DNA from: an uncultured Candidatus Saccharibacteria bacterium
GTDB lineage: Bacteria > Patescibacteriota > Doudnabacteria > UBA920
Length of the DNA stretch: 64,000 bases
Direction: 5' to 3'
Assembly: GCA_964561085.1 (NCBI GenBank)
Contig: CAZLNP010000005.1
Span: 3,151-67,150, forward strand
The translations under genes were made by a program, and so were the position numbers. Shown piece after piece: positions 45,716 through 60,038 of this stretch. The first letter of the stretch is position 1; the number at the start of each line of letters is the position of its first letter. Under the pieces are notes generated by a model, which saw only the letters and a program-made list of their open reading frames with translations, was not told where the DNA came from and searched no databases.

Positions 45716-45791
45716 GGGCGGTTAGCTCAGTTGGTAGAGCGTCTCATTGACGTTGAGAAGGTCACAGGTTCGACTCCTGTACCGCCCACCA
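45716..45791 (+). tRNA. tRNA-Val(GAC)
   Basis: GGGCGGT acceptor. D arm GCTC-AGTTGGTA-GAGC. Anticodon stem TCTCA/TGAGA with loop TTGACGT. T arm ACAGG-TTCGACT-CCTGT. Encoded CCA. Confidence 0.85.
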
Positions 45792-46596: not shown

Positions 46597-46814
46597 AATG
46601 ACAAATAAAATTGAGAGTGGGGGCTTTAACCCAGAATCAAATCAAGAAGAATTAGAAATTGACTAGTGGGGATAACTCGCGTTGACCGCCTAAGTAGCGA
46701 ATGTTATATTTGAGACACGAGATAATCTCCGAGTAACCAAACAAAGACAAAGATATCAGAAACGACTTCCTCATAAAGGGGAGGTCGTTTTTGTATGTTA
46801 TAATTATTAAAGTT

Positions 46815-49442
46815 ATGTATCTTAAACGACTTGAAACACAAGGGTTTAAATCATTCGCCAAGAAAACAGTTTTGGAGTTTGAAACCGGAATAACCGCCAT
46901 CGTGGGCCCAAACGGCAGTGGAAAATCTAACACTGCTGATTCTTTGCGTTGGGTTTTAGGAGAACAAAGTTCTAAGTTAATGCGCGGTAAAAAAAGCGAA
47001 GACGTAATCTTCGCCGGCTCAGACAAGAAAGCGCGTTCCGGCTTTGCGGAAGTAATCGCTACTTTCGACAACCGTGACCACAAAATTCCAATCGACTCTG
47101 CAGAGGTAAGCATCGGTCGTCGTATTTCACGTAGTGGTGAAAGTGAATATCTAATTAACGGCACTAAAGTTCGTTTGTTAGATATTGTTGACTTAGTTTT
47201 GAAATCAAATATCGGAACCTCCCGCTACACAGTTATTGGCCAGGGTACTATTGATCAAATGATTTTAGCTGGCCCACAAGAAATTAAAAATTTAATTGAT
47301 GAAGCTTCTGGTGTAAAAACATATTACATCAAACGGGACAGAACGCTTCGTCGCTTAGAACAGACTGCACAGAATTTGATGCGCGCTGAAGATTTGCTTC
47401 GCGAACTAGAGCCTCGTGTAAAATCACTTCGTCGCCAAGCAAAAAGAATGGAAGCCCGTGAAGTTATCGAGGTTGATTTAAAAGCTTTCCAAAAAGAATA
47501 TTTAGGATCGCAGTGGTGGACTTTGAAAGACTCGATTGATGGATTGCAAAAACAGTTAGGTGATTTACACTTACAACGTTCCCAGGTAGAGAACGTGATG
47601 GCTGCCCACTTGCAAAAAATAGAGCAGCACGAAAAAGAGAATGAACAAGCCTTGGGTGATTACAAACACGTTCAAGAAAAATTGCAGAAGCTTCAAGCGG
47701 AAAAGAATAGTTTGCTTGAACAAGTCAGTTTGATTCGTGGCAAAATGGCTAGTCAAAAAACAGGTGCTGGAGACAGTAATACTCTTCAAATTGATAGTCA
47801 TACCTTAGAGCAAAAAATTATTGAAATTGAAACTCAGCTAGCAGCTAGCGAAGCACAGCACAAGCAAGCAATTGAGCAGGCTACAAACCAAGAACAGGCT
47901 CTATCTGTTGTGAATGCACAATTAACAGAGTTGTATACTGCTTTGAGCAATCCGGCTGGAAGTGATTGGGCAGCCATAGAAGAACAGCTAACCACTCTAG
48001 ATAACACCTTTGCTCAGTTCGCTCGTATACTGGAAGATACAGATGATATTGGTCAAATTCGCAATGCTACTGCTGGTGTAATGCACGCATGGAAAGAGTT
48101 CAAAACTATTGCTGGTGAAGCAGCAAAGCACCCTGACTATAACAATAAACTTCAAGCGCAACTTCAAGAGCTAACCGCTCAAAAAGATAAGCTTGCTGCA
48201 GATCAAAATGTTTTGACTATGACCGCTTCTAAGGCCGCTATGACAAAAGATTTTTTGGCTGGGCAATTGGCCTCCCTTCAAAACGAAAAGTTGCATATTG
48301 ATTTGGAATTAAAGAAGGTATCAAGCGGGGGTAATCAGGATGATTATATTAAAGAGTTAGTTGCTGAGGAAAACAAGGTTCAAGAAAAAGTTGCAGCACT
48401 TACAGAACAAATTTCCACAATGGAATCTCAGATGCAAAGTTTTTATGATGCAGAGTCGAATTGGAAATCTGCAATCTCTGAGGAAGATAAGCGTTTCCGT
48501 TCACAACAAACTGAACTTGATCGTATTCGTGATAACGAAGCAAAAGTCCAAGTTGAAAAAGCTAAGTATGAAACTCAGTCTGACGCAATCGTTTCCGACA
48601 TTGTTGCTCAGCTAGGCAGTGAAATTTTAGATAAAATTCAAGCTCATCCAATTAAGAAAGAAACAGAAGGATTAACAGAAAAGATTAACAAGTTACAACA
48701 TCAGCTAAGTTTGATTGGTGGAGTAGATGAGTTAACACTTCAGGAATATCATGAGACCGAAAATCGTTATTCTACTTTAGAAAACCAAGTTTTGGATTTA
48801 AAGAAGAGCATGAACGATTTGCGTGAAGTAATGGATGAACTAGACGAACATATTAAAACTAAATTTAACGAATCTTTCCACAAAGTTAACACACAGTTTG
48901 AGCAGTACTTTAGAATGTTGTTTAATGGTGGCCGTGCGTACTTATCACTTGTAAAATCTAGTGAAGACAAAACTGAAGCCGAGACTGAATTAGAAGCTGA
49001 AGATGCTAAAGAAGCAGCTGAAGAAAAAGATGGTATGCGCCCAGAAGAGAAAATCATTGCAAAGTACGAAAAGGGTAGCTTGGCAGTGGCTGGTGTAGAA
49101 ATTCGTGCCACACCACCAAATAAAAAACTCTCAGCAATTCAATCACTTTCCGGTGGAGAACGCTCGCTAACTTCAATCGCGCTTCTATGTAGTTTGTTAA
49201 CATGCTTCCCATCACCATTCGTTGTGCTAGATGAGGTTGATGCTGCACTTGATGAAGCCAATACTATCCGTTTTGGACAAATCTTGGGCAAGCTGTCTCA
49301 TCAAACCCAGTTCATCACCATTACCCATAATCGCGAGACTATGTCGCAGGCGAATATTATTTACGGTGTGACTATGGGCGATGATGGCATCTCTCAACTA
49401 CTTTCCATCAAGATGGATCAGGCGAAAACTTACGCGAAATAG
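46815..49442 (+). CDS. smc: SMC-like chromosome-segregation ATPase (short form, no recognisable hinge)
   Basis: N-terminal Walker A GPNGSGKSN after MYLKRLETQGFKSF. Long coiled-coil. C-terminal signature LSGGERSLTSIAL and Walker B VVLDEVDAALD. 876 aa. Confidence 0.75.
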   Translation: MYLKRLETQGFKSFAKKTVLEFETGITAIVGPNGSGKSNTADSLRWVLGEQSSKLMRGKKSEDVIFAGSDKKARSGFAEVIATFDNRDHKIPIDSAEVSIGRRISRSGESEYLINGTKVRLLDIVDLVLKSNIGTSRYTVIGQGTIDQMILAGPQEIKNLIDEASGVKTYYIKRDRTLRRLEQTAQNLMRAEDLLRELEPRVKSLRRQAKRMEAREVIEVDLKAFQKEYLGSQWWTLKDSIDGLQKQLGDLHLQRSQVENVMAAHLQKIEQHEKENEQALGDYKHVQEKLQKLQAEKNSLLEQVSLIRGKMASQKTGAGDSNTLQIDSHTLEQKIIEIETQLAASEAQHKQAIEQATNQEQALSVVNAQLTELYTALSNPAGSDWAAIEEQLTTLDNTFAQFARILEDTDDIGQIRNATAGVMHAWKEFKTIAGEAAKHPDYNNKLQAQLQELTAQKDKLAADQNVLTMTASKAAMTKDFLAGQLASLQNEKLHIDLELKKVSSGGNQDDYIKELVAEENKVQEKVAALTEQISTMESQMQSFYDAESNWKSAISEEDKRFRSQQTELDRIRDNEAKVQVEKAKYETQSDAIVSDIVAQLGSEILDKIQAHPIKKETEGLTEKINKLQHQLSLIGGVDELTLQEYHETENRYSTLENQVLDLKKSMNDLREVMDELDEHIKTKFNESFHKVNTQFEQYFRMLFNGGRAYLSLVKSSEDKTEAETELEAEDAKEAAEEKDGMRPEEKIIAKYEKGSLAVAGVEIRATPPNKKLSAIQSLSGGERSLTSIALLCSLLTCFPSPFVVLDEVDAALDEANTIRFGQILGKLSHQTQFITITHNRETMSQANIIYGVTMGDDGISQLLSIKMDQAKTYAK

Positions 49443-49573
49443 GCGCAAAGCCTTCAAATTAACAACCTTGACTAAAAGGGCTTCTGGTGGTAAACTATGG
49501 AAGTCCTTTTTATCTTTGAGACCGTCAAACTCAATAGATAAAACAATTTTATAGATCAATTTAAGTTATTTAA

Positions 49574-50059
49574 ATGTTAACTATCCGCCTACAACGCGCT
49601 GGTAAAAAGAATAAACCGGAATACCGAGTTATTCTTGCAGATAAAACTGCAGCTGCGCAAAAGAAATTTACCGAGATCCTCGGTTCTTATAATCCACACA
49701 CTAAAGCTTTGAACATTCGTAGCCAAGAACGTCTGGATTACTGGATGAAAGAACAACACGTACCACTTTCTGCTACAGTGCAAAACCTTTTTGTCACTAA
49801 AGAAATTATCAAAGGTACTAAGACTAAAGCTTTTACAATTCCTAAGAAGGAAGTAGTAGCTGAAGAAGTTAAAGAAGATGTTGCTACAGATGCACCAGTT
49901 GCTGAAGCTCCTGCCGAAACTTCAACAGAAGTTGTTGCAGAAGCAGAGACTCCAGTTACACCTGAAGCTCCAGCAGAAGCTCCTGCTCCTGAAGTTGCAC
50001 CAGTAGAAACTCCTGTTGAAGTAGTTGCTGAAGAGGCTAAAGAAGAAGAAAAAGCTTAA
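49574..50059 (+). CDS. rpsP: 30S ribosomal protein S16 with Ala/Pro/Glu-rich C-terminal extension
   Basis: MLTIRLQRAGKKNKPEYRVILADKTAAAQKKFTEILGSYNPHT matches S16. About 75-aa low-complexity tail. Terminator at 50062..50095. Confidence 0.85.
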   Translation: MLTIRLQRAGKKNKPEYRVILADKTAAAQKKFTEILGSYNPHTKALNIRSQERLDYWMKEQHVPLSATVQNLFVTKEIIKGTKTKAFTIPKKEVVAEEVKEDVATDAPVAEAPAETSTEVVAEAETPVTPEAPAEAPAPEVAPVETPVEVVAEEAKEEEKA

Positions 50060-50236
50060 CCAAACATAATCCCGCCTTTACGGTGGGATTTTTTGTGTCC
50101 AAATAGACCCCTTGACATAATCGTAAGATTGTACTATGATACTACGAAATTTTAGCGTATAATAAGGTTACAATTTCATTATGGCTATGATTCACTGGCC
50201 ATGGTTGTACATTCCGAATTACATTAGGGGGTAATT

Positions 50237-51634
50237 ATGAAGAACAGATTAGTATGTTTTGTCGTTCTTGCGATTGTGGTTTTAATGCCGCATTCGCTAA
50301 ACGCTCAGACTCGCCAACTCTCATTGAGAGGAATAGTGAGAGAGCTTGTTGTGGAAATGGATGCTGGGCGTTCGGAAAGTAAGTATTTTCTAGAAGTTGA
50401 TGGAGACTCTTATCCGTTAACAACGAAATTAGATCTAAGTTCGCTTGCGAACTATAAGGTCGAAGTTCTTGGGAAACTTACCAACAACACCGTTCGCGTT
50501 TCTAGTGCCTTGCCTTTGGAAGAGATTCCGGAAGTTAGACAAAAGATCTTTCCCAATGGTATGCACTCCTTTGATGTCGAATCAAAGGAAGATCACAGGC
50601 TTGCGGTGTTCACGCCTGCTCCAACAGAAGGTATTAGGAATATAGGTTTCTTTGGTTTTAAGTTTTCTGATGATCTTAGTGAACCGCTTAGTCCTGAGCA
50701 AATTTACAACCTTACGTTGGCCTCTGATGTTCAAGGTCCAACGCTCAAGGGGCTTATTGATAAGGCTGCTGGGTCAAAATTCTCGATTACTGGATTAGTG
50801 CATCCTGAATGGATTACTATTCCTCATACTCGAGCTTTCTGCGCAGCTGGTGCAAATATGTTTAATGCTTGCACTAATTCAGCGAAGAGTCTCTTGCAAG
50901 ATCGAGGTGTAATCCTTTCCTCTTATAAAACATTAGCCTTTTTCCATCCACCCATTCCTGGTAGCACTGTTGGCCCTATGGCCACCCAAGGAGTAAAGGG
51001 CGATTCAAGTGTTCAGGGAACAATATGGGTGCCATTAACACCTTCGGCCATCAGCAGGCTTCCACAGATCTTAGCTCATGAGTTAGGTCACAATCTTGGT
51101 TTTGGCCACTCTGGTGCAATGGGCGGTGATGGACAAGTTTACACCGTCGCAGATAGAGGTTGCTATATGGGTGGTTCGATGGCGATGCTAAATATTTATT
51201 ATAGGATAATGGCTGGCTGGGTTACAGGTAAAATAGTAACCATCAGCGGTCCAGGAACTTATGATGTGTATTTGCACCCAGCAGATAAAGTAGTAAAAGG
51301 GAATAAAGGTGTGGTTATCCAAACCCGTGATTCTAATGGAGTGCAACATGCTGACCTCACTTTTATCGAGGCGAGGAGGTTATTGCTACCATATGAGGAT
51401 TTCCTCCAAAACATGTCCTATGCCACTGGGGCAATTATCAGGAAAGGGTTGCAAGATATGACCTTGGCGCAAAGTGTGCCAACGGTGCTACCAACATCAA
51501 CCAATCCCAATCCTGACTTTAACCCATTACAATTGGGAGATGTTTATACTGACTCAACTAAGGGACTGACTGTTCAGCATTTTCCATCTTCGATTTCCAG
51601 AGGGATGTGGCTTCGGATTACTCTTAACCAGTGA
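50237..51634 (+). CDS. secreted zinc metalloprotease (metzincin-like HExxHxxGxxH)
   Basis: Signal peptide MKNRLVCFVVLAIVVLMPHSLNA. HELGHNLGFGHS zinc-binding motif. Confidence 0.65.
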   Translation: MKNRLVCFVVLAIVVLMPHSLNAQTRQLSLRGIVRELVVEMDAGRSESKYFLEVDGDSYPLTTKLDLSSLANYKVEVLGKLTNNTVRVSSALPLEEIPEVRQKIFPNGMHSFDVESKEDHRLAVFTPAPTEGIRNIGFFGFKFSDDLSEPLSPEQIYNLTLASDVQGPTLKGLIDKAAGSKFSITGLVHPEWITIPHTRAFCAAGANMFNACTNSAKSLLQDRGVILSSYKTLAFFHPPIPGSTVGPMATQGVKGDSSVQGTIWVPLTPSAISRLPQILAHELGHNLGFGHSGAMGGDGQVYTVADRGCYMGGSMAMLNIYYRIMAGWVTGKIVTISGPGTYDVYLHPADKVVKGNKGVVIQTRDSNGVQHADLTFIEARRLLLPYEDFLQNMSYATGAIIRKGLQDMTLAQSVPTVLPTSTNPNPDFNPLQLGDVYTDSTKGLTVQHFPSSISRGMWLRITLNQ

Positions 51635-51770
51635 TTCGGAGTAGTACCCCCTACTGTGAATATTTTGGCCGCGCTTCAATGTAAGTGCGGTCTTTTTTTT
51701 TGACTTTAGTTAAAATTTATGCTATACTAATCGTAGATTACTTAGTGCAAGAAATAAAAAAAATACAAAA

Positions 51771-52247
51771 ATGAATAAGAAGATAGAACTCATCGCAATT
51801 ATTGTTGGTCTTGGGGCTGTTGTAGCCGCAGGTTTTTATTTTTATAACCAACAGAATTTAGATAAAGTTGCAGAGATTGAGAACGTACCCTTCTCAGTAG
51901 ATAAAAAAGAACTTAATACAACACAGGTTCCAAGTGGATTTCCTGCAGATTTCCCAGTAGAACCGGGGTCTCGCATAGTAAAGAACTATGAAGCTACTAC
52001 TAGCGACGGAAGACTTCAGTCTACTAGGTCTCTCACAACAAATAAAACCTTAGAACAAGCCGCACAAAGCTACGCTGATTATTTCATCGATCTTGGTTGG
52101 ACTGAAGTTGAGTCTCAAAATCCAGATTCTAATACTTCTAATTCGTTATTGCGAAGAAAAGATAATATATTGCTGATAGTTGCTAGGAACAATCCTGCTA
52201 CTAAAGAAAAAACAGTGGAAGTTACTCTCACTGAAGCAGCTAAATAA
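51771..52247 (+). CDS. membrane-anchored hypothetical protein (paralog of 55689..56177)
   Basis: N-terminal TM helix. Shares ...P.GFP...P.EP......NY.A...DGR.Q.TR...T.KTL......Y..Y....GW..ES......KTV...LTE with the downstream paralog. Confidence 0.55.
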   Translation: MNKKIELIAIIVGLGAVVAAGFYFYNQQNLDKVAEIENVPFSVDKKELNTTQVPSGFPADFPVEPGSRIVKNYEATTSDGRLQSTRSLTTNKTLEQAAQSYADYFIDLGWTEVESQNPDSNTSNSLLRRKDNILLIVARNNPATKEKTVEVTLTEAAK

Positions 52248-52264
52248 AACAAAAATTAATAATT

Positions 52265-55200
52265 ATGAAAATCAAAAATTTTTACATTTCATTTATAGCA
52301 GCTGCAATTACATTAAGTTCTTTTGTTCCTGTTTTACCAGCTGAAGTACTTCCCCGAGTTTTAGAAACAAAAGTAGTTAGAGCAGCAGAAGATCAACCAA
52401 ACTGGTTCCAAGTAAGCGTTAAAGATCATAATTGTAGCGACCAAACAGGCTCTTCTTCTTTAGTAGGTCCTAATGGATCAGCTGCGGCTACAGATTCAAA
52501 CGCAAAGGACCCTGATTGTGGTAATATTAGTTTTAATACTTCTAGTGTCTCAGGTGTTGGTTTAACTGAGACTATATATAACAATGACTTCCGTATTGGC
52601 ACTAGACTAGCAGAAAGCGAAAGTGGTTGTAGTCGTGATGCTGGTGATATCCGTTGGACACCATGGGCGTCTGAAGGCGGAGGAGCCGGTTGGGGTGCAA
52701 CAGCAAACTCAAACGTTAACGATCCAGACTGTTTATGGATTCATTATGAAACTCGTCCTTTGCCAGCTGGAATCTTAATTCAAGATGTTCGCGCCGGAAT
52801 TTCTACAGGACACGGTGGTTTTGCATTTACCCCTTGGGCTCGCCAAGGTGGCGGATCTTCATCTTATTCTGGTGGTGGTAACATAAGCCCAGCTAGATTA
52901 TTTTTGGATGTGAGATTAGTAGATGTATATGATGCAGAGTATGTTTCTGATACTGTTCCAGCTTCAATGAACCGTGGGCAGAGTGGAGACTATGAGATTG
53001 TAATGAAGAACAAAGCAACCACTTGGCAAACAGATTTCCCTTCATATGCACAAACAGATGAATGCTCTTCTCAACAGCCAGAAGATGTTCAAGAGGGAGA
53101 AACTTGTACTGCTGTTGTTCAAGGTCATTCTACAAAAATCAAGCTAAAAAGCTTAAATGATATTACTGGCATAACCACAACCCCGGAGCCAGAATTAGAA
53201 TATCGTCGTGAAATAGTTCGTGAATATGTAGCTGCGGATGTGTGTATTAACTTCGATGGTTCTTTTGCAGGCCCAAGCGGTGGCGGTGTAGAAGGTGGTG
53301 GCGACGAAGGAATTAAGGGTGGTTTTTTGACACCTTTAATTAAAACAGCACAAGCGTTGCGTCTGCCAGATGATATTGAACCAGGCGACACAGGTCCTTA
53401 TTGTAATGAATGGGGATATATGTTTGCGCTAGTTAACCAAACTCCTACAAATATGAACATCGTAAATGAAGACGATGGATCATTCCCAATCTCGGTGCAG
53501 ATTGGTGCTACAGCCACTAATGGTACTCATACTTTGCAGTACCAGATGGTAAATTTAGATACAAATGAACTCTTCGGTGAAATTGCTAACATTGATATCT
53601 CTATTGGTGCTGGGTTAAACTGCGGCTTAGATGTCACTGTTCCTGTGGGAACCGAAGCGCAATATGCTATCGCGGCAACTGGAACCCCTTCTGCTCCAAT
53701 TTCTGTCACTATGTCTAGCGCGCCAACCGGTCCAACAATGATTAATAACCCGCCAGTTCAGAACAATCCATTAGTCCTGAACTCGGGAAATAGTTTCGCA
53801 GGCACAGCTTATGTCGCTACAACAGGATTAACCGCTGGTTCATACATCCTAACTTTTACAGGCGATAACGGAAGCAGTTGTCAGTCAAATTTGCTGCTAA
53901 CAGCAATACAACCAACCGTAAGCCTATTCTTTAATGGTTCCGGTACTCCTGTTGTGTTAGGTGTTGGTATAACTTCTGGAACTCTCAGTTGGACGACAGA
54001 AAATGCTGCTAGTTGTACCGCATCGACTAACCCAGGTACTAATTCCATTACTCCACAATGGGACAATTCAACTGTTATTAGTTTGCCTGATGGCTCTCTG
54101 GCAGTATCAAACATTCAACCTGGTATTTTATATACCTTTGCTATTACATGCACTAGTAGTACTGGCGATTCTACATATGGCTCAGTCCAAGTTTCAACAA
54201 CCGCAGTTGTCCCACCAGTTCCTACAGCTAATATTCAATGTCAGGGATCGGTACGTGGTATAACAGAAGGTCCTTGTGGAATTGGTTACGGTGAGTCAGG
54301 AACAATTTTCTGGTCATCAACAGATGCTACCGCATGTTCCATTGATAATGGTATAGGTAGTGGCCTTGATCCAAATAATTCTACTATTGGAGTTTCAACA
54401 GGAAACTTGTATTCAACTACTACTTTCACAATTACATGTAGCGGACCTGGCGGAACAAGCGCACCTGACTCCGTTGTATTTGATGTTCCAACTGTTCAGC
54501 CATCATTCACGCTAACATGTACCCCTGCATCAATTAGTCTTCCACAAGGAAGCACTGGTAGTTTTGATCTAGAAACAACAGGGCTTTATGGTTTCGCAGA
54601 TAGAGTTGATTTCTCAAACACTGATATATCTCCAAGACCGGATACTGCACCAGGAATTACTTTTGACAACAATGGACAAGTTCCAGATGCGGTAACAACT
54701 GCATTAGTCGATACTTCAGGTGCAACCCCTGGAATTTTCACTTTAACATTTGAAGGCACTGGTGGTGGCAATACAGAAAGCTGTAGCGTAGAATTAGAAA
54801 TTACTTCTATTAATCCACCTACAGTAGACATTGCTGTCACTGCATCAAATGCTAATTGTGGAACTATCGACATATCATGGAAAAACCCTGGAGGTTCTCC
54901 GGACCCAGGCTCCTTCCGTGTTTACCACAGACTTACTACTAAAGAACCATGGGTTCAAATAGGTGAAAAAGATACTACTTATGATCCTAGTGGTTCATAT
55001 GTGGTGACTCACTCCGAGAGCCCACCATTAAGCTTAGATTCTTCTAATTACTATGCAGTCACAGCTCTATTTAGCGGAATAGAATCTGATTATGTACTTG
55101 CAGACCCTACTTCTATCATTCCTCAAGCCTGTTCGCCAAACACAAGCCGTTCAGATAAAGACGTACTTTCTGTAGCTGGTCAAATTAATAAAACCTTTAA

Positions 55201-55660
55201 CGCAGTAGCGTGTAGTGGTGTATCAGAAATTGCTTCTCTACCAAATAATGCTGTGTTTGCACCTGGAGATAGGGTTACTTTCCAAATTAACGTTTGTAAT
55301 TCAGGAGCAGGAACACTTACTGGTGTTTCAGTCTTCGATACCCTGAAGAACCTTTCAGGTGTTACAGATATCAGTTCGCCACAGGGATGTATAAATGGTC
55401 AAAATTACGATGAAAAGAGCGGTACTATTAGCTTTGACCTAGCTGATATTGGCCCTGGGGATGTTTCAACTCAGTCTTGTAGCATAGTATTCACAGCTAC
55501 AGTGACTGCACCAGAGGCTGCTACAGGAGCTCTATACAGATTCCAAAATATTGCTAACATCACAACCAACGAATTGGCTCAGTATCAAGTTCTAACACCA
55601 CCATATTTGTTTAGCTTAACTGGCGGTGTGCCAGACCGTACTGAAACAGCTCCTAATTAA
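52265..55660 (+). CDS. large secreted Thr/Ser/Gly-rich surface protein (1131 aa), probable adhesin-like
   Basis: Signal peptide. Repeated beta-rich segments and Cys pairs. FN3/Ig-like stretch ...NCGTIDISWKNPGGSPDPGSFRVYHR.... Confidence 0.6.
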   Translation: MKIKNFYISFIAAAITLSSFVPVLPAEVLPRVLETKVVRAAEDQPNWFQVSVKDHNCSDQTGSSSLVGPNGSAAATDSNAKDPDCGNISFNTSSVSGVGLTETIYNNDFRIGTRLAESESGCSRDAGDIRWTPWASEGGGAGWGATANSNVNDPDCLWIHYETRPLPAGILIQDVRAGISTGHGGFAFTPWARQGGGSSSYSGGGNISPARLFLDVRLVDVYDAEYVSDTVPASMNRGQSGDYEIVMKNKATTWQTDFPSYAQTDECSSQQPEDVQEGETCTAVVQGHSTKIKLKSLNDITGITTTPEPELEYRREIVREYVAADVCINFDGSFAGPSGGGVEGGGDEGIKGGFLTPLIKTAQALRLPDDIEPGDTGPYCNEWGYMFALVNQTPTNMNIVNEDDGSFPISVQIGATATNGTHTLQYQMVNLDTNELFGEIANIDISIGAGLNCGLDVTVPVGTEAQYAIAATGTPSAPISVTMSSAPTGPTMINNPPVQNNPLVLNSGNSFAGTAYVATTGLTAGSYILTFTGDNGSSCQSNLLLTAIQPTVSLFFNGSGTPVVLGVGITSGTLSWTTENAASCTASTNPGTNSITPQWDNSTVISLPDGSLAVSNIQPGILYTFAITCTSSTGDSTYGSVQVSTTAVVPPVPTANIQCQGSVRGITEGPCGIGYGESGTIFWSSTDATACSIDNGIGSGLDPNNSTIGVSTGNLYSTTTFTITCSGPGGTSAPDSVVFDVPTVQPSFTLTCTPASISLPQGSTGSFDLETTGLYGFADRVDFSNTDISPRPDTAPGITFDNNGQVPDAVTTALVDTSGATPGIFTLTFEGTGGGNTESCSVELEITSINPPTVDIAVTASNANCGTIDISWKNPGGSPDPGSFRVYHRLTTKEPWVQIGEKDTTYDPSGSYVVTHSESPPLSLDSSNYYAVTALFSGIESDYVLADPTSIIPQACSPNTSRSDKDVLSVAGQINKTFNAVACSGVSEIASLPNNAVFAPGDRVTFQINVCNSGAGTLTGVSVFDTLKNLSGVTDISSPQGCINGQNYDEKSGTISFDLADIGPGDVSTQSCSIVFTATVTAPEAATGALYRFQNIANITTNELAQYQVLTPPYLFSLTGGVPDRTETAPN

Positions 55661-55688
55661 GAGTTAGTAAAAATAATATACAAACAAA

Positions 55689-56177
55689 ATGAATTACGAA
55701 GACTCTGTTAAAAAAATTCTAGTAGTTATAATCATGATTGTGGCATTTGCCATAGGAACTACTTTGGTTGTAAGTCTGTTTATGAATGATTCAGGCGCAC
55801 CATCAACTCAGCAGGCAGACGATAATAGCATTGTTGAAAAAAGTGATGTATCCGACAGTCGGTTACCAGATAAGTTCCCCACAAATCTACCTACAGAACC
55901 GAATGCAGTAGTGACTCAAAATTATAATGCTGTTGCGGATGATGGTAGATTCCAAGCAACAAGAACTTACGAGACTACAAAGACTTTGTCGGAGAACTTA
56001 ACTATTTATAGACAGTACTTAAATAGCAATGGCTGGGATATCGAGTCTACTGTTGACCAACCGACTTACAAAAAAATTAGTGGTAAAAAAGGAATTCAAA
56101 AGCTTCAAGTTTCTATTAGTGAAAATGAAACTACTAAAGTTAAAACCGTTTCTATTTCCTTGACCGAGCTTCCTTAA
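55689..56177 (+). CDS. membrane-anchored hypothetical protein (paralog of 51771..52247)
   Basis: See 51771..52247. N-terminal TM helix ILVVIIMIVAFAIGTTLVVSLF. Confidence 0.55.
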   Translation: MNYEDSVKKILVVIIMIVAFAIGTTLVVSLFMNDSGAPSTQQADDNSIVEKSDVSDSRLPDKFPTNLPTEPNAVVTQNYNAVADDGRFQATRTYETTKTLSENLTIYRQYLNSNGWDIESTVDQPTYKKISGKKGIQKLQVSISENETTKVKTVSISLTELP

Positions 56178-56262
56178 TTTGATATGATGCGAGTGCAATA
56201 GAGGCTCAGTTAGAAAAGGTCGAAGCCAACACTTCTATAGCAGAAAATCTAACAGAACGAAC

Positions 56263-56628
56263 ATGGAGAATGATCAAGAATTTGTTGAATACATCATCAA
56301 AGCGTTAGTAGATAACCCGGCAGATGTTCGCACAGATCGCACAGTTGATGAAATGGGTGTATTAATTACACTACACATCAATCCTGCAGACATGGGTCAA
56401 GTTATTGGCCGTATGGGTCAAACAGCAAAAGCTGTTCGCACCCTTCTACGCGTAGTTGGTGCTAAACACAAGGCTCGTGTTAACTTGAAGATTGATGAAC
56501 CAGAAGGTTCTCACCGTGGCCCTCGTCGTGAATACGGCGATCGCAACAACACTCCTGCAAGCGATAACTCTCAGGAAGTACATCCTGCAGAAGCTACCGC
56601 TCCAGACATGGACGACTTCAAGCTTTAA
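56263..56628 (+). CDS. KH-domain RNA-binding protein (YlqC-like) with C-terminal basic/acidic tail
   Basis: KH core VIGRMGQTAKAVRTLL. Canonical position between rpsP and trmD. Terminator at 56640..56673. Confidence 0.75.
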   Translation: MENDQEFVEYIIKALVDNPADVRTDRTVDEMGVLITLHINPADMGQVIGRMGQTAKAVRTLLRVVGAKHKARVNLKIDEPEGSHRGPRREYGDRNNTPASDNSQEVHPAEATAPDMDDFKL

Positions 56629-56686
56629 TCTAAAGATAAAAACCAAACCCGCGCTTTATTGCGGGTTTTGTTTTATAATTAACAGT

Positions 56687-56995
56687 ATGAGTGAAAGGTC
56701 TACAAAATTCCGAAAATGGATATTAAGCTTGTACTGGTTGTACTTTTTTTATCATTTAATTCGCGATATACTGCAAATCTATCATGTTGATTCTTTCTTG
56801 ACTACAATAGCATCGCGCAGTAATCATCAATGGTGCAGAGGTGATATCAACTACTGTAGTTATATAACTTTTCCAGTTGAACTTTTTGCCTTAATTGCGA
56901 TTCCTTTAATTTGGAATAGGCCTAGAGTAGGGACTGTCGAAGTCTTAGTTTATATAACTTTTCCTTTGTTAGTATTAATGTGGGTGTTGCCATAA
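56687..56995 (+). CDS. small membrane protein, hypothetical (occupies the position where rimM usually lies)
   Basis: 102 aa with 2–3 hydrophobic helices. No PRC-barrel/RimM features. Confidence 0.4.
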   Translation: MSERSTKFRKWILSLYWLYFFYHLIRDILQIYHVDSFLTTIASRSNHQWCRGDINYCSYITFPVELFALIAIPLIWNRPRVGTVEVLVYITFPLLVLMWVLP

Positions 56996-56998
56996 AAT

Positions 56999-57712
56999 AT
57001 GAAAAAGAGAATATCCGTTTCAATAATCACTTTATTTCCTGAGTTCATCGACCAGTACGCTGGGTTCGGTATCATTGCTCGGGCAATTAAGAATAAACTT
57101 TTAAAAATAAGTGCAGTGAACCTGCGCCGTTTTGCTATTGATAAACGAGGGACTGTAGATGACAGACCTTACGGCGGTGGACTTGGAATGGTGCTTCGCC
57201 CTGATGTTGTGATTAAAGCAATCAACAAGCTTCGTGGCCGTCCTTCTACTAAAAAAACGCGAGTAGTTCTTATGACACCGCAAGGAAAACCTTTTACTCA
57301 AGCAATCGCTCGAAAGCTTTCCACCTATGATCATATTGTTTTTGTTTCTGGTCGCTACGAAGGCTTCGATGAACGAGTTCGTAAATTTGTAGATGAAGAA
57401 ATTTCCATTGGTGATTATGTTTTAATGGGCGGCGAAATTCCGGCGTTGGTAATAACAGAAGCAGTACTCCGCTTGGTACCTGGAGTTTTGGGTAAAGATG
57501 ATTCCGCAGATAAAGAAAGTTTTACAGAATCGATGCTAGAGTTCCCACAATACACTAAGCCCGAAGTTTTGGAAGTAAAAGTAAATGGCAAAGTTAAGAA
57601 AATGCCCGTGCCAAAAGTTTTGCTGAGTGGGCATCATTTAAATATTGAAAAGTGGCGCGCGGAAGAGGCTATTAGTCGTACGCAAAAGCGTCGTCCAGAT
57701 TTACTGAAATAA
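56999..57712 (+). CDS. trmD: tRNA (guanine37-N1)-methyltransferase
   Basis: SPOUT knot motifs: ISVSIITLFPEF, GRYEGFDERV, DYVLMGGEIPALV. Confidence 0.9.
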   Translation: MKKRISVSIITLFPEFIDQYAGFGIIARAIKNKLLKISAVNLRRFAIDKRGTVDDRPYGGGLGMVLRPDVVIKAINKLRGRPSTKKTRVVLMTPQGKPFTQAIARKLSTYDHIVFVSGRYEGFDERVRKFVDEEISIGDYVLMGGEIPALVITEAVLRLVPGVLGKDDSADKESFTESMLEFPQYTKPEVLEVKVNGKVKKMPVPKVLLSGHHLNIEKWRAEEAISRTQKRRPDLLK

Positions 57713-58654
57713 ATGCCACAACATAAATTTACAGTTGAAGATTTAAAAACACGTTTAGATAAATTTCTCGCAGAGAATTTGTCGGATTTGTCGCGTGGAA
57801 AAATTCAGAAAGACATAGAAGCTGGCGCGGTGAAGGTGAATGGCTTGGTAAAAGATTCGACAAAGTTCCCAGTGCGCAAAGATGACGTTGTGGAATACGA
57901 ACCAATTAAAGCCGATGAACACGGGCCTGTTAATATACCTATCCACACTTTATACAACAACCACGGGTTATTAATTTTAGATAAGCCAGCAGGACTTGCA
58001 GTACATCCAGGCGCAGGTTTCAAAGGGGATTCCTTAGCACAGGCGCTGTTGTATCATTTTAAAGATATTCACCTTGTAGGCGAAGAGGGTCGGAGCGGTA
58101 TAGTTCATAGACTAGATAAAGACACTAGTGGGGTGATGATGGTTGCCCTAACCCCAGAGATGTATGACCACTTAAAAGATGCTTTCCTAGAACGCAAGGT
58201 GCGAAAAGAATATTTTGCCTTAGTTAAGGGTAGAATTGATGAAAAGCACGGTAAAATTGACCTCCCTTTGGGTAAAAGTCAGAAAGATTTCCGTAAATAT
58301 ACTACAAATACAGCAGATATGGTCCGCGAAAAGCCATCTTTGACTGAGTACTGGGTAGAGCAGTATTATACTGCCGAAACTAAGGACGGGGTTGACTTTT
58401 ATACCCAAATTAAGGTAAAATTGCATACAGGTAGGACGCATCAGATTCGCGTCCATTTTTCCGCCCTCGGCTTTCCATTAGTAGGAGATGAACTCTACGG
58501 TGGCAAGAAAGTAATGAAGCTTGGTCTGCAAAGGCAATTCCTTCATTCTAAAAAGATTGAAGTGCAATTACCTGACCAACAATGGATTGAAGCAGAAGCA
58601 GAAATCCCTAAAGACTTGAAAGAAATTTTATCTAATTTAAAGAAATCTAACTAG
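57713..58654 (+). CDS. rluD: RluA-family pseudouridine synthase (RluD-like, S4 domain + catalytic HRLDKDTSG)
   Basis: S4-like N-terminus. Catalytic Asp motif [15 protein letters not shown]. Confidence 0.8.
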
Positions 58655-58655
58655 T

Positions 58656-59075
58656 ATGCCAACTATAAAAAATTTAAGAGCAGAACAGTTGAAAGAATGG
58701 CCAAACTTTGAAGTTGGTAATACTGTTAAAGTACACAACCGCATTAAAGAAGGTGGTAAAGAACGTATTCAGATTTTTGAAGGCGTTGTTATCGCTCGTA
58801 AGGGTGGTAAAGGTACAAACGCAACTTTCATGGTTCGCAAGATTGCTTCCGGTGTTGGCGTTGAACGTATTTACCCTCTACACTCTCCAAACATTGCTAA
58901 GATCGAAGTATCTAAAGATGATACAGTTCGCCAAGCAAAGATTTATTACATTCGTGAAAAGCGTGATAATACTCCTCGCACACGTCGCAAGATTGTCATC
59001 ACTAAAAAGATGAAAGAAGCTGCAGCAAAGAAAGAAGCTGCTAAGAAAACAGCTAAGACTGAAGAAGTAGCTTAA
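58656..59075 (+). CDS. rplS: 50S ribosomal protein L19 with Lys/Ala-rich tail
   Basis: [32 protein letters not shown] matches L19. Terminator at 59084..59112. Confidence 0.9.
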
Positions 59076-59240
59076 TACGAATTCCCAAACACCTCGAAAG
59101 GGGTGTTTTTGTTTGTGTCAAAGTAGAATTGACATCTCTAAATATTGGGAGCATTATATAAGCAACATCTGATTTTCGGGATGGACGTTAGAGTGGCGGA
59201 ATTTATATAATTGGGAAACCAACATAGTAGGAGGATAACT

Positions 59241-60038
59241 GTGAGCAAAGACTTATATGATTTAGCAAGGCGCATTTATGGCGCTACAAATGTATTGTTC
59301 GTTTATGCAGGAGATCGTTTCGAGATTTCTGCTGGCGACTCGGGGATCAAATTGATGCCGTTAAAGGCAGATATTTGCTCAAAAGAATTTTTTCGACAGT
59401 TAAAAGCACAGAAAGATGGAGTTTCAACGCTTTGTGTGCTGCGCGAAGATTTGTGCACCTGTTTTATGCAGGATGTTGAGAAAATATGGAACTTAGGAAT
59501 TAGGAATATATTTTGTTATGATAATGTATTCCAAATGTATTGTGATGTATTCCAAATGTTTGACTTCTCGAGTTTTACTATCGAGAAAAAGAAAATTCGA
59601 TATCAAGAAGGTCGATCAATTACTTTTGCCCCTTCCAGAAATTCTCCAAATGTTCGTGTCGGTGCAATTAACGATATTACCGCAAAAGTGCGGGAACATT
59701 TAGACGATTTCCACGGCATGCCTGCGTGGCTGGTCGCTCAGAAAATGCTCGATCTGCATCCCGGAATTAACATTGAGTTCCATGTATGGGCTCAAGCAAT
59801 AAGACAAGTAAGAGGGCAGGAGACTATGGCTAAATTTCCCCTGCTTCACGAACTCGTGAGTTGGATTATCCAGGAAAGCTCTCGTGAAGGGCTTGTCTTG
59901 GATTTCAGCGAAGAGAAGTCTTATGAAGATTTGCTCTCCATGTGCTTAATACACATTAAATTAAGTAAGACTTATTTGAATGTAAAGAACCTGAAAAAGG
60001 TTGTTGGGCATATTCAAAAGGAATCCGTTTTAGTTTAG
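59241..60038 (+). CDS. hypothetical protein
   Basis: GTG start 7 nt after an AGGAGG RBS. Contains an in-frame 16-nt tandem duplication (VFQMY/VFQMF). Confidence 0.5.
   Translation: MSKDLYDLARRIYGATNVLFVYAGDRFEISAGDSGIKLMPLKADICSKEFFRQLKAQKDGVSTLCVLREDLCTCFMQDVEKIWNLGIRNIFCYDNVFQMYCDVFQMFDFSSFTIEKKKIRYQEGRSITFAPSRNSPNVRVGAINDITAKVREHLDDFHGMPAWLVAQKMLDLHPGINIEFHVWAQAIRQVRGQETMAKFPLLHELVSWIIQESSREGLVLDFSEEKSYEDLLSMCLIHIKLSKTYLNVKNLKKVVGHIQKESVLV

Follow-up and report, generated by a model that had tools for sequence, protein, structure and literature searches.

We analyzed a 64,000-nucleotide stretch of DNA (referred to here as the window) from a metagenome-assembled genome (MAG) of Saccharibacteria (Patescibacteria). 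A contig at 100% identity is contained in SRR12762285, one of the source samples. The element of interest is a four-gene cassette within a ribosomal protein operon, located between rpsP, the gene of ribosomal protein S16, and khpA, the gene of a KH-domain protein. In this order, the cassette codes for a metzincin-like protease (465 aa), a small membrane-anchored protein (smA, 158 aa), a giant, predicted surface protein (the giant, 1131 aa) and a second small protein (smB, 162 aa). With moderate confidence we interpret the cassette as a cell-surface locus that is native, specific to one clade and quick to diversify, and that goes back to a single gain in the rpsP–khpA interval, after which duplication, loss, permutation and allelic exchange altered it. 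Most likely it is a variable adhesin or surface-layer locus, probably serving the contact with other cells.

Conservation and origin of the cassette

For the comparison with relatives we used a TrmD-anchored scan with one genome per species, which yielded about 19 related loci from Saccharibacteria/Patescibacteria MAGs (designated by L-numbers). The proteins of the window were mapped onto them. A cassette of the same gene families lies between S16 and KH in all 16 loci of the clade (L001–L016), whose TrmD sequences are 66–95% identical to that of the window. S16 directly adjoins KH in the sister clade (L017–L019, TrmD 58–61% identical) as well as in the Patescibacteria outgroups L022 and L033, and rpsP is kept in all related loci. 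In a neighbor-joining tree of KH, TrmD and RluD, calculated without support values, the cassette-bearing loci form one clade that is sister to the cassette-free L017–L019, and the outgroups are cassette-free. Since the cassette is found at the same site in every member of the clade and is absent from the sister clade and the outgroups, it most plausibly goes back to a single old gain and not to a recent foreign insertion. On three more distant contigs (L084, L088 and L091), a gene of the smA/smB family (sm gene in the following) is located directly after S16.

An earlier reading of the sequence alone (the original prediction) had described the block as an accessory insertion in the ribosomal operon and had suggested a comparison of the rpsP–rplS locus among relatives. 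This comparison bears out one half of the claim: with respect to the canonical operon the block is accessory and lineage-specific. It does not bear out a recent or foreign origin, and judged by gene order and composition the block appears to be old, native and fixed in position. A deviation in GC content or codon usage, which it had suggested checking, was not found, as the GC content of the cassette genes and their GC content at third codon positions (GC3) are within the values spanned by the flanking housekeeping genes. Neither the list of open reading frames (ORFs) nor Pfam revealed an integrase or transposase between S16 and KH, and there are no flanking or att-like repeats around the cassette. 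No tRNA gene is adjacent; the nearest one (45716–45791) is separated from it by two long ORFs, one of them coding for SMC, and by rpsP. A mobile genomic island was rejected on account of the native composition and the lack of an integrase or transposase, of flanking repeats and of a tRNA target.

Variability among relatives and allelic exchange

The content of the cassette varies strongly within the clade. At least nine architectures occur in 17 loci, with one to three small proteins, one to four large immunoglobulin (Ig)-like surface proteins and a protease that is either present or absent. The commonest order, S16–smB–protease–smA–giant–KH, was observed in L001, L003, L005, L011, L013 and L014. 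L007 has no smB, L015 and L016 have smB followed by giants without a protease, and L002, L004, L009 and L010 comprise two to four giant-family genes together with up to three sm genes. The order protease–smA–giant–smB is restricted to the window and L006, its nearest relative; what is visible of the fragment L086 agrees with that order. Relative to the common arrangement it is a derived circular permutation, which could stem from a tandem duplication followed by a deletion.

A blastn alignment of the window with L006 resulted in 93–94% nucleotide identity over three collinear blocks with two sharp breaks. At the first break (exchange unit in Table 1) the segment corresponding to the window sequence is 3385–4982 in L006. 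The swapped protease products are both 465 aa long and 27–29% identical, and smA and smB stay 97% identical despite the swap. This break is an allelic cassette replacement of the protease gene that extends from just past the promoter through the terminator. The protease of the window is slightly closer to alleles from distant lineages, those of L011 and L014 (34–35% identity), and that of L006 is slightly closer to the allele of L013 (36%), than the two are to each other.

When the window is compared with L006, the ratio of nonsynonymous to synonymous substitution rates (dN/dS) amounts to 0.18 in smA, 0.13 in the giant and 0.11 in smB, and to 0–0.15 in the flanking genes. These low values (0.11–0.18) indicate that the cassette genes are functional and under purifying selection. 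Gene-wide positive selection was not detected, the dN/dS against L006 being below 0.2 in every cassette gene. The differences between the two giants cluster at aa 500–700, i.e. in internal Ig-like domains. Synonymous divergence (dS) is uneven along the region 46791–59075, reaching 0.86 in trmD, 0.28 in both smc and the giant, and just 0.04–0.10 in khpA, smA, smB and rplS, which suggests a mosaic recombination history.

The giant protein

An AlphaFold2 (AF2) model of the giant is all-β with a predicted local distance difference test (pLDDT) score of 72.7. The signal peptide is followed by an N-terminal region (aa 45–326), a Gly-rich disordered linker (aa 327–382) and about 7–8 Ig-like sandwiches. 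The Ig or FN3 repeats that had been suspected in this protein are thus seen in the model as a string of Ig-like domains, and its description as rich in Thr, Ser and Gly agrees with the composition (T 11.3%, S 10.5%, G 10.5%). The 24 Cys residues are roughly paired per domain and would fit an extracellular protein. DUF11 (PF01345) at aa 991–1102 is the sole domain of the giant recognized by Pfam; with 30.3 bits against a cutoff of 24.6 (E = 5.8e-7) the match is above the gathering threshold, and the domain is also assigned to homologs. Searches of the N-terminal and middle regions against Pfam, NCBIfam, PADLOC and PDB sequences gave nothing above threshold, an isopeptide domain model reached 14.6 bits, far below its 30-bit cutoff, and a self-BLAST found no internal repeats at E ≤ 1. 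Foldseek matched the model only to generic Ig strings (hydin, the GhpA grappling hook, MG domains of α2-macroglobulin, DSCAM and the Sap S-layer protein) with TM-scores below 0.3.

The C-terminal tail of the giant carries the signature YRFQN…TPPYLFS..GGVP[DN]RxE[TI]xP, which is present in all 23 giant-class proteins, including the one from the unrelated locus L083, and ends 0–4 residues from the stop codon. The last 15 residues of the giant (aa 1117–1131) are predicted to be disordered (pLDDT below 50). An LPXTG motif with a hydrophobic segment and a basic tail is absent from the giant, which ends in …TPPYLFSLTGGVPDRTETAPN, and likewise from the 23 homologs.

The N-terminal region (aa ~45–326, nucleotides 52385–53245) contains many residues that are invariant among full-length homologs and a repeated motif (…WTPWASEGGG… / …FTPWARQGGG…), with no family match. 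This region could be a ligand-binding head.

The small membrane-anchored proteins

A BLASTP alignment of smA and smB gave 31% identity over 152 aa (E = 6e-19), and both sequences end in KTVxxxLTE, which establishes the paralogy proposed for them. Precomputed annotation assigns PF27226 ("AF_1845") to homologs 93–94% identical to smB and to most other matches, the label AF_1845 being marked as weak in several records. A profile search resulted in 1,860 clusters at 50% identity, nearly all of them 150–180 aa long. The family is uncharacterized and PF27226 has no known function. Pfam, NCBIfam, PADLOC and PDB sequence searches with the small proteins themselves, and with the variable ORFs of the relatives, returned nothing above threshold.

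In the AF2 model of smB, a transmembrane helix (aa 3–34) is connected via a disordered linker to a compact ectodomain with the topology β-β-β-α-β-β-β-β and a pLDDT above 90. This domain comprises about 110 aa. The sm proteins have neither a cytoplasmic domain nor a lipobox, and their function must therefore be extracellular. The invariant residues of the family make up a polar motif, FP…P.E……QNY…..DGRFQATR. A Foldseek search of the fold against the PDB yielded no significant match (best E = 0.029). Weak matches recur in the Mog1/PsbP/DcrB/LpqN/Eag fold class, with a high 'prob' and TM-scores of 0.3–0.4.

The sm genes are tightly associated with genes of large proteins. A smA-type gene is followed by a giant gene at a spacing of -4 to +21 nt in 13 out of 13 cases, which suggests translational coupling. 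Genes of the smB type are usually the first after S16; the next gene is either the protease at 100–170 nt or a giant or other large ORF at 1–29 nt (5 cases). Within about 330 kb of TrmD-anchored loci and the 64-kb window, homologs of sm and giant are confined to the cassette site. A metagenome scan for the sm family added 7 loci, most of them short; distant members lie mostly on short contigs, and coupling outside the clade is therefore based on few cases. Among them are the unrelated loci L083 (HisRS–sm–198–246–1034 aa–ComEC) and L082 (sm–359–418 aa, followed by type IV pilus genes), as well as L092 (sm–669 aa) and L095 (sm, then a gene of more than 531 aa).

Because sm genes are coupled to giants and head operons of large secreted proteins elsewhere, we regard the two paralogs as leader genes of surface-protein modules. 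The original prediction had offered two explanations for their position on either side of the giant. Their interpretation as footprints of an insertion fails, since the bracketing is seen only in the window and L006 (L086 is consistent) and the family occurs also at unrelated loci. The other proposal, a chaperone or anchor pair for the giant, is compatible with the tight coupling to giant genes. The bracketing itself is a derived order.

The sm-headed operons also contain a second class of secreted proteins of 350–420 aa, which share a distinct C-terminus, …LTVGNT…P..QLS.PQ.RLPK..TV.G. (Table 1).

The protease

The protease carries the zinc-binding motif that had marked it as a secreted metzincin-type enzyme (Table 1). 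The extended motif HExxHxxGxxH is kept in nine out of nine alleles, in three of them with one extra residue ahead of the third His. About 25 residues past the third His, a sequence alignment column that is a candidate for the Met-turn contains Met in six alleles, Leu in two and Val in one. Pairwise identities between alleles are mostly 20–39%, with two closer pairs at 50% and 88%. The enzyme did not reach any curated peptidase family: the best Pfam match, Reprolysin_4, scored 20.2 bits against a cutoff of 22, TIGR03296 (M6) 18.6 against 110.8, and M10 and M66 remained sub-threshold. PDB sequence matches to serralysin and acutolysin were weak (E 0.25 or worse). The allele of the window has two detectable relatives among 5.8 billion proteins, neither of them annotated.

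A protease gene is present in about half of the loci. It was not seen in 7 of the 16 relatives (L002, L004, L008, L009, L010, L015 and L016), three of which are cut at the 5' end; too little of L012 is visible. Given its absence from the visible part of these seven loci, the protease is not needed for maturation of the giant in general.

Transcription units and neighboring genes

All ORFs listed in the original prediction are present, and so is the terminator it had placed after rpsP; the order KH–trmD–rluD–rplS that it saw resuming downstream is confirmed by Pfam assignments. The coordinates are summarized in Table 1.

Table 1. Features of the cassette and its surroundings (window coordinates unless a locus is named).
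Feature	Position	Strand	Remarks
rpsP (S16)	49574..50059	+	Pfam Ribosomal_S16 2.1e-11; long Ala/Pro/Glu-rich C-terminal extension; upstream boundary of the cassette
Terminator-like hairpin after rpsP	50068..50090	+	9-bp stem plus T run
Promoter-like site upstream of the protease gene	50112..50140	+	TTGACA-17-TATGAT; 11/12 match, consensus match only
Exchange unit (5' untranslated region, protease ORF, its terminator)	50164..51694		No nucleotide similarity to L006 (blastn); conserved blocks up to 50163 and from 51695 on
Protease gene	50237..51634	+	Secreted metzincin-like zinc metalloprotease, 465 aa, signal peptide; HELGHNLGFGHS at aa 281-292
Terminator-like hairpin after the protease gene	51667..51692	+	10-bp stem plus T9; equivalents in L003, L014
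Promoter-like site upstream of smA-giant	51700..51728	+	10/12 match, extended -10 TG; consensus match only
smA	51771..52247	+	N-terminally membrane-anchored, PF27226 (AF_1845) family; leader gene of the giant; paralog of smB
Giant gene	52265..55660	+	Predicted secreted surface protein, 1131 aa; signal peptide, N-terminal region, linker, Ig-like sandwiches, C-terminal DUF11
Conserved C-terminal signature of the giant	55535..55657	+	YRFQN...TPPYLFS..GGVPDRTETAPN
smB	55689..56177	+	Second PF27226-family paralog; BLASTP vs smA E=6e-19
Promoter-like site for khpA	56160..56188	+	Within the 3' end of smB; 10/12 match with TG, consensus match only
khpA (KH-domain gene, khpA type)	56263..56628	+	Pfam KH_KhpA-B 2.5e-21; downstream boundary of the cassette
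Terminator-like hairpin after khpA	56645..56668	+	
Strain-specific indel	56681..57016		336 nt (~300-nt difference); holds the 102-aa ORF m102 (56687-56995); between khpA terminator and trmD
trmD, rluD-like, rplS (resumed conserved operon)	56999..59075	+	Pfam; order same in L001-L019
trmD (TrmD)	56999-57712		Pfam
RluD-like pseudouridine synthase gene	57713-58654		Pfam
rplS (L19)	58656-59075		Pfam
Members of the 350-420-aa class	L004 3268-4431; L008 4918-6087; L010 6000-7223; L015 3438-4508, 8386-9444; L082 3724-4803		

Judged by these signals, the cassette appears to be built of separately promoted and terminated units, a modular layout that L003 and L014 seem to share. The promoter-like site ahead of the protease gene belongs to a block that L006 shares, and the protease of L003 is preceded by a similar site. 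Both L003 and L014 have equivalent hairpins 3' of S16, and their KH genes are preceded by promoter-like sites with 10–11 out of 12 matches. A further terminator-like hairpin was found 3' of L19.

The 102-aa hydrophobic ORF m102 between khpA and trmD had been thought to occupy the slot of rimM. The ORF exists, but the idea of a slot does not hold, because rimM is nearly absent from bacteria of the Candidate Phyla Radiation (CPR) (PMC12641178) and the ORF lies in a strain-specific indel. The 336-nt segment, the second of the two breaks in the alignment with L006, is reduced to 42 nt there and is absent from L086 (96–98% identical, with a KH–TrmD gap of 80 nt); no terminal repeats surround it. 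The ORF has no homolog in related loci, no called-gene record and no hit in Pfam, NCBIfam or PADLOC. Its coding status is unproven, and the indel that holds it lies outside the cassette. A hidden Markov model of RimM, built from 12 canonical loci, recovered an independent control at 3.5e-58 and gave no match with an E-value below 0.11 in the window or any Patescibacteria locus, so that the search for rimM proposed earlier turned up none. A role of the 102-aa ORF as a substitute for rimM was ruled out by the strain-specific indel together with the near-absence of rimM throughout the CPR.

Several further features of the operon were noted. S16 has a low-complexity C-terminal extension of ~70 aa, rich in Ala, Pro, Glu and Val, and the KH protein a C-terminal extension of ~40 aa; both differ in length among relatives. 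All Saccharibacteria loci examined (L001–L019) have a RluD-type synthase (S4 plus PseudoU_synth_2) between trmD and rplS, and no RluD match was found at this position in the non-CPR loci from the TrmD scan. Other lineage-specific ORFs of 147–208 aa, none of them annotated, are wedged into the trmD/rluD or khpA/trmD gap (L001 10728–11354, L010 10722–11339, L009 9528–9971). Downstream of rplS, a 275-aa ORF (59211–60038) has no NCBIfam hit and is 96% identical in L006.

Proposed function and alternative explanations

Based on the anatomy of the cassette, its coupling and its variability we propose the following model. The giant would be exported by the Sec pathway and displayed as an adhesin or a surface-layer rod that contacts the host or other cells. 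The co-translated sm would be a type-II membrane protein, tethered by its N-terminal helix, and may act outside the cell as a dedicated docking or assembly partner of the giant. Most plausibly, sm would engage the conserved C-terminal domain and tail of the giant. The polar patch of sm and the tail of the giant are the two conserved elements that persist in otherwise fast-evolving proteins. The protease would be an optional, interchangeable accessory acting on external targets. A role in host contact is plausible because cultured Saccharibacteria require several adhesin-type proteins of the envelope for epibiotic growth (PMC10633639).

Several observations weigh against this model. The adhesin role is derived from domain type and analogy, and the part of sm as a partner of the giant is putative; the fold search, with its best E of 0.029, gives the docking role no independent support. 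The ratio of sm to giant genes is not always 1:1, as L010 has one visible sm for four large genes and L015 one for three. No partner gene follows smB in the window and L006, and in most loci smB lies 100–170 nt from the protease. The family also heads the operon of L082, whose proteins do not have the tail. Finally, the tree of KH, TrmD and RluD, which enters into the single gain, is without support values.

A possible though unlikely variant is that the giants are S-layer subunits, with sm as a membrane pedestal for the lattice and the variability serving evasion of phages or of host defense. The Ig-like rod with its weak Foldseek match to the Bacillus anthracis S-layer protein Sap would agree with this, as would the strong-looking promoters of the cassette beside highly expressed ribosomal genes; the conserved tail could well be a shared device for anchoring. 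On the other hand, several loci contain multiple non-identical giants, which is unusual for the subunit of a single lattice. Pfam revealed neither S-layer homology (SLH) domains nor other known S-layer anchoring domains, and the likeness to Sap is generic to Ig strings, at TM-scores below 0.3.

It is improbable that the sm proteins are membrane-tethered inhibitors or immunity proteins for the metzincin, with the giants as functionally independent neighbors. Small periplasmic inhibitors are encoded beside serralysins, and the proximity of a smB-type gene directly upstream of the protease in the commonest architecture would match such an arrangement, as would the extracytoplasmic location of both proteins. 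The strict coupling, however, is that of smA with the giant. The seven loci in which no protease was seen (three of them cut at the 5' end) have sm nonetheless, and L007 and L094 have a protease without a preceding smB. Furthermore, smA and smB are still 97% identical between the window and L006 although the protease was swapped, which argues against a co-evolving pair.

Quite improbable is a conflict or recognition system like polymorphic toxins or VARTIG of the Thermococcales, in which the large Ig protein presents a variable determinant and the small proteins are immunity or recognition partners. Such a system would likewise be a hypervariable locus around large Ig-domain proteins with variable accompanying genes and recombinational exchange, and the overall layout of VARTIG is comparable (PMC8416519). 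Here, however, the C-terminus of the giant is its most conserved part and not a hypervariable toxin or recognition tip, and the differences between the window and L006 cluster in the internal Ig domains (aa 500–700). The small genes are upstream of the large gene, not downstream, and Pfam, NCBIfam and PADLOC detected no toxin or defense domains. Both the inhibitor and the toxin reading fit the data poorly.

A recent horizontal insertion of a mobile or foreign island, with the two paralogs as its duplicated ends or footprints, would account for the adjacency of S16 and KH in the sister clade and outgroups and for terminators and promoters that insulate the block from the flanking genes, but it is extremely improbable in view of the same site in 16 out of 16 members of a monophyletic clade down to 66% TrmD identity, the GC and GC3 values that match the flanks, the lack of integrase, tRNA and flanking repeats, and the paralogs themselves, which bracket the giant nowhere but in the window and L006, lie upstream of the large genes elsewhere and share just 31% identity, so that their duplication must be old.

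Relation to known systems

Among the closest parallels are flexible ('metagenomic') genomic islands with variable cell-surface genes, such as the cell-wall-associated island of Haloquadratum walsbyi (PMC4535781), where secreted and surface genes at a fixed site are replaced between near-identical genomes and the composition is native. The present locus differs in its position inside the rpsP–trmD–rplS operon of a CPR bacterium and in its repeated module of a PF27226 anchor and an Ig-like giant, with or without a metzincin. VARTIG is a hypervariable locus of Thermococcales with a large multi-Ig protein, variable accessory genes and recombinational exchange, the function of which is unknown (Makarova et al. 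2021, PMC8416519). Compared by layout and not by sequence, it differs from our locus in its hypervariable C-terminal Ig domain and its downstream variable genes, as opposed to a C-terminus that is the most conserved part and a small gene that is upstream.

At the level of single proteins, the giant resembles the DUF11/isopeptide Ig adhesins and pilins of Gram-positive bacteria (TIGR01451 B_ant_repeat; RrgB-like) in its above-threshold DUF11, its Ig-like rod and its signal peptide. Unlike these it has no LPXTG, hydrophobic segment or basic tail and ends in a hydrophilic …VPDRTETAPN. The protease shares HExxHxxGxxH, with Ser next to the third His, and a signal peptide with metzincins (serralysin, adamalysin, matrixin, M6-like), and a conserved Met/Leu some 25 residues further on may correspond to their Met-turn. 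It differs in staying below the threshold of every curated family and in its divergent alleles, some of which have the one-residue insertion in the motif. As a small, membrane-tethered extracytoplasmic α/β domain, sm is reminiscent of Mog1/PsbP-like envelope proteins (DcrB, LpqN, Mtc28, TiME and the Eag/DUF1795 chaperones). This likeness is a lead only, as sm matches none of them below E 0.029, TM-scores are 0.3–0.4 and its domain of about 110 aa is smaller.

Our literature search yielded no earlier account of the cassette or of PF27226/AF_1845, and none of DUF11 in Patescibacteria. The locus is set apart from the known islands and VARTIG by its address in a CPR ribosomal operon, the module of PF27226 protein and giant, a C-terminal tail that is conserved rather than hypervariable, and the exchange units that extend from promoter to terminator. 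In a wider version, which we put forward tentatively and consider rather unlikely, the PF27226 anchors and the conserved hydrophilic tail of the giants (…PPYLF…VP[DN]RxE[TI]xP) would constitute an unrecognized, Saccharibacteria-wide system of non-covalent attachment, a counterpart of sortase/LPXTG or SLH, and the interval between rpsP and khpA would be a hotspot for swapping promoter-to-terminator cassettes that affect host range or phage evasion.

The understanding of the ribosomal operon is not changed by these results, since the lack of rimM was already familiar from the CPR. Like other CPR bacteria, Saccharibacteria live attached to bacterial hosts, yet type IV pili aside, few of the surface molecules that mediate attachment and host range are known. 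In this context the locus offers a defined, recurrent module of a small anchor-like protein and a giant Ig-like protein with a conserved tail, together with a fixed chromosomal address at which this module diversifies. The metzincin gene adds a natural allelic replacement of a single gene between near-identical genomes. The locus thereby provides testable candidates for adhesion and anchoring, and it gives PF27226 a genomic context.

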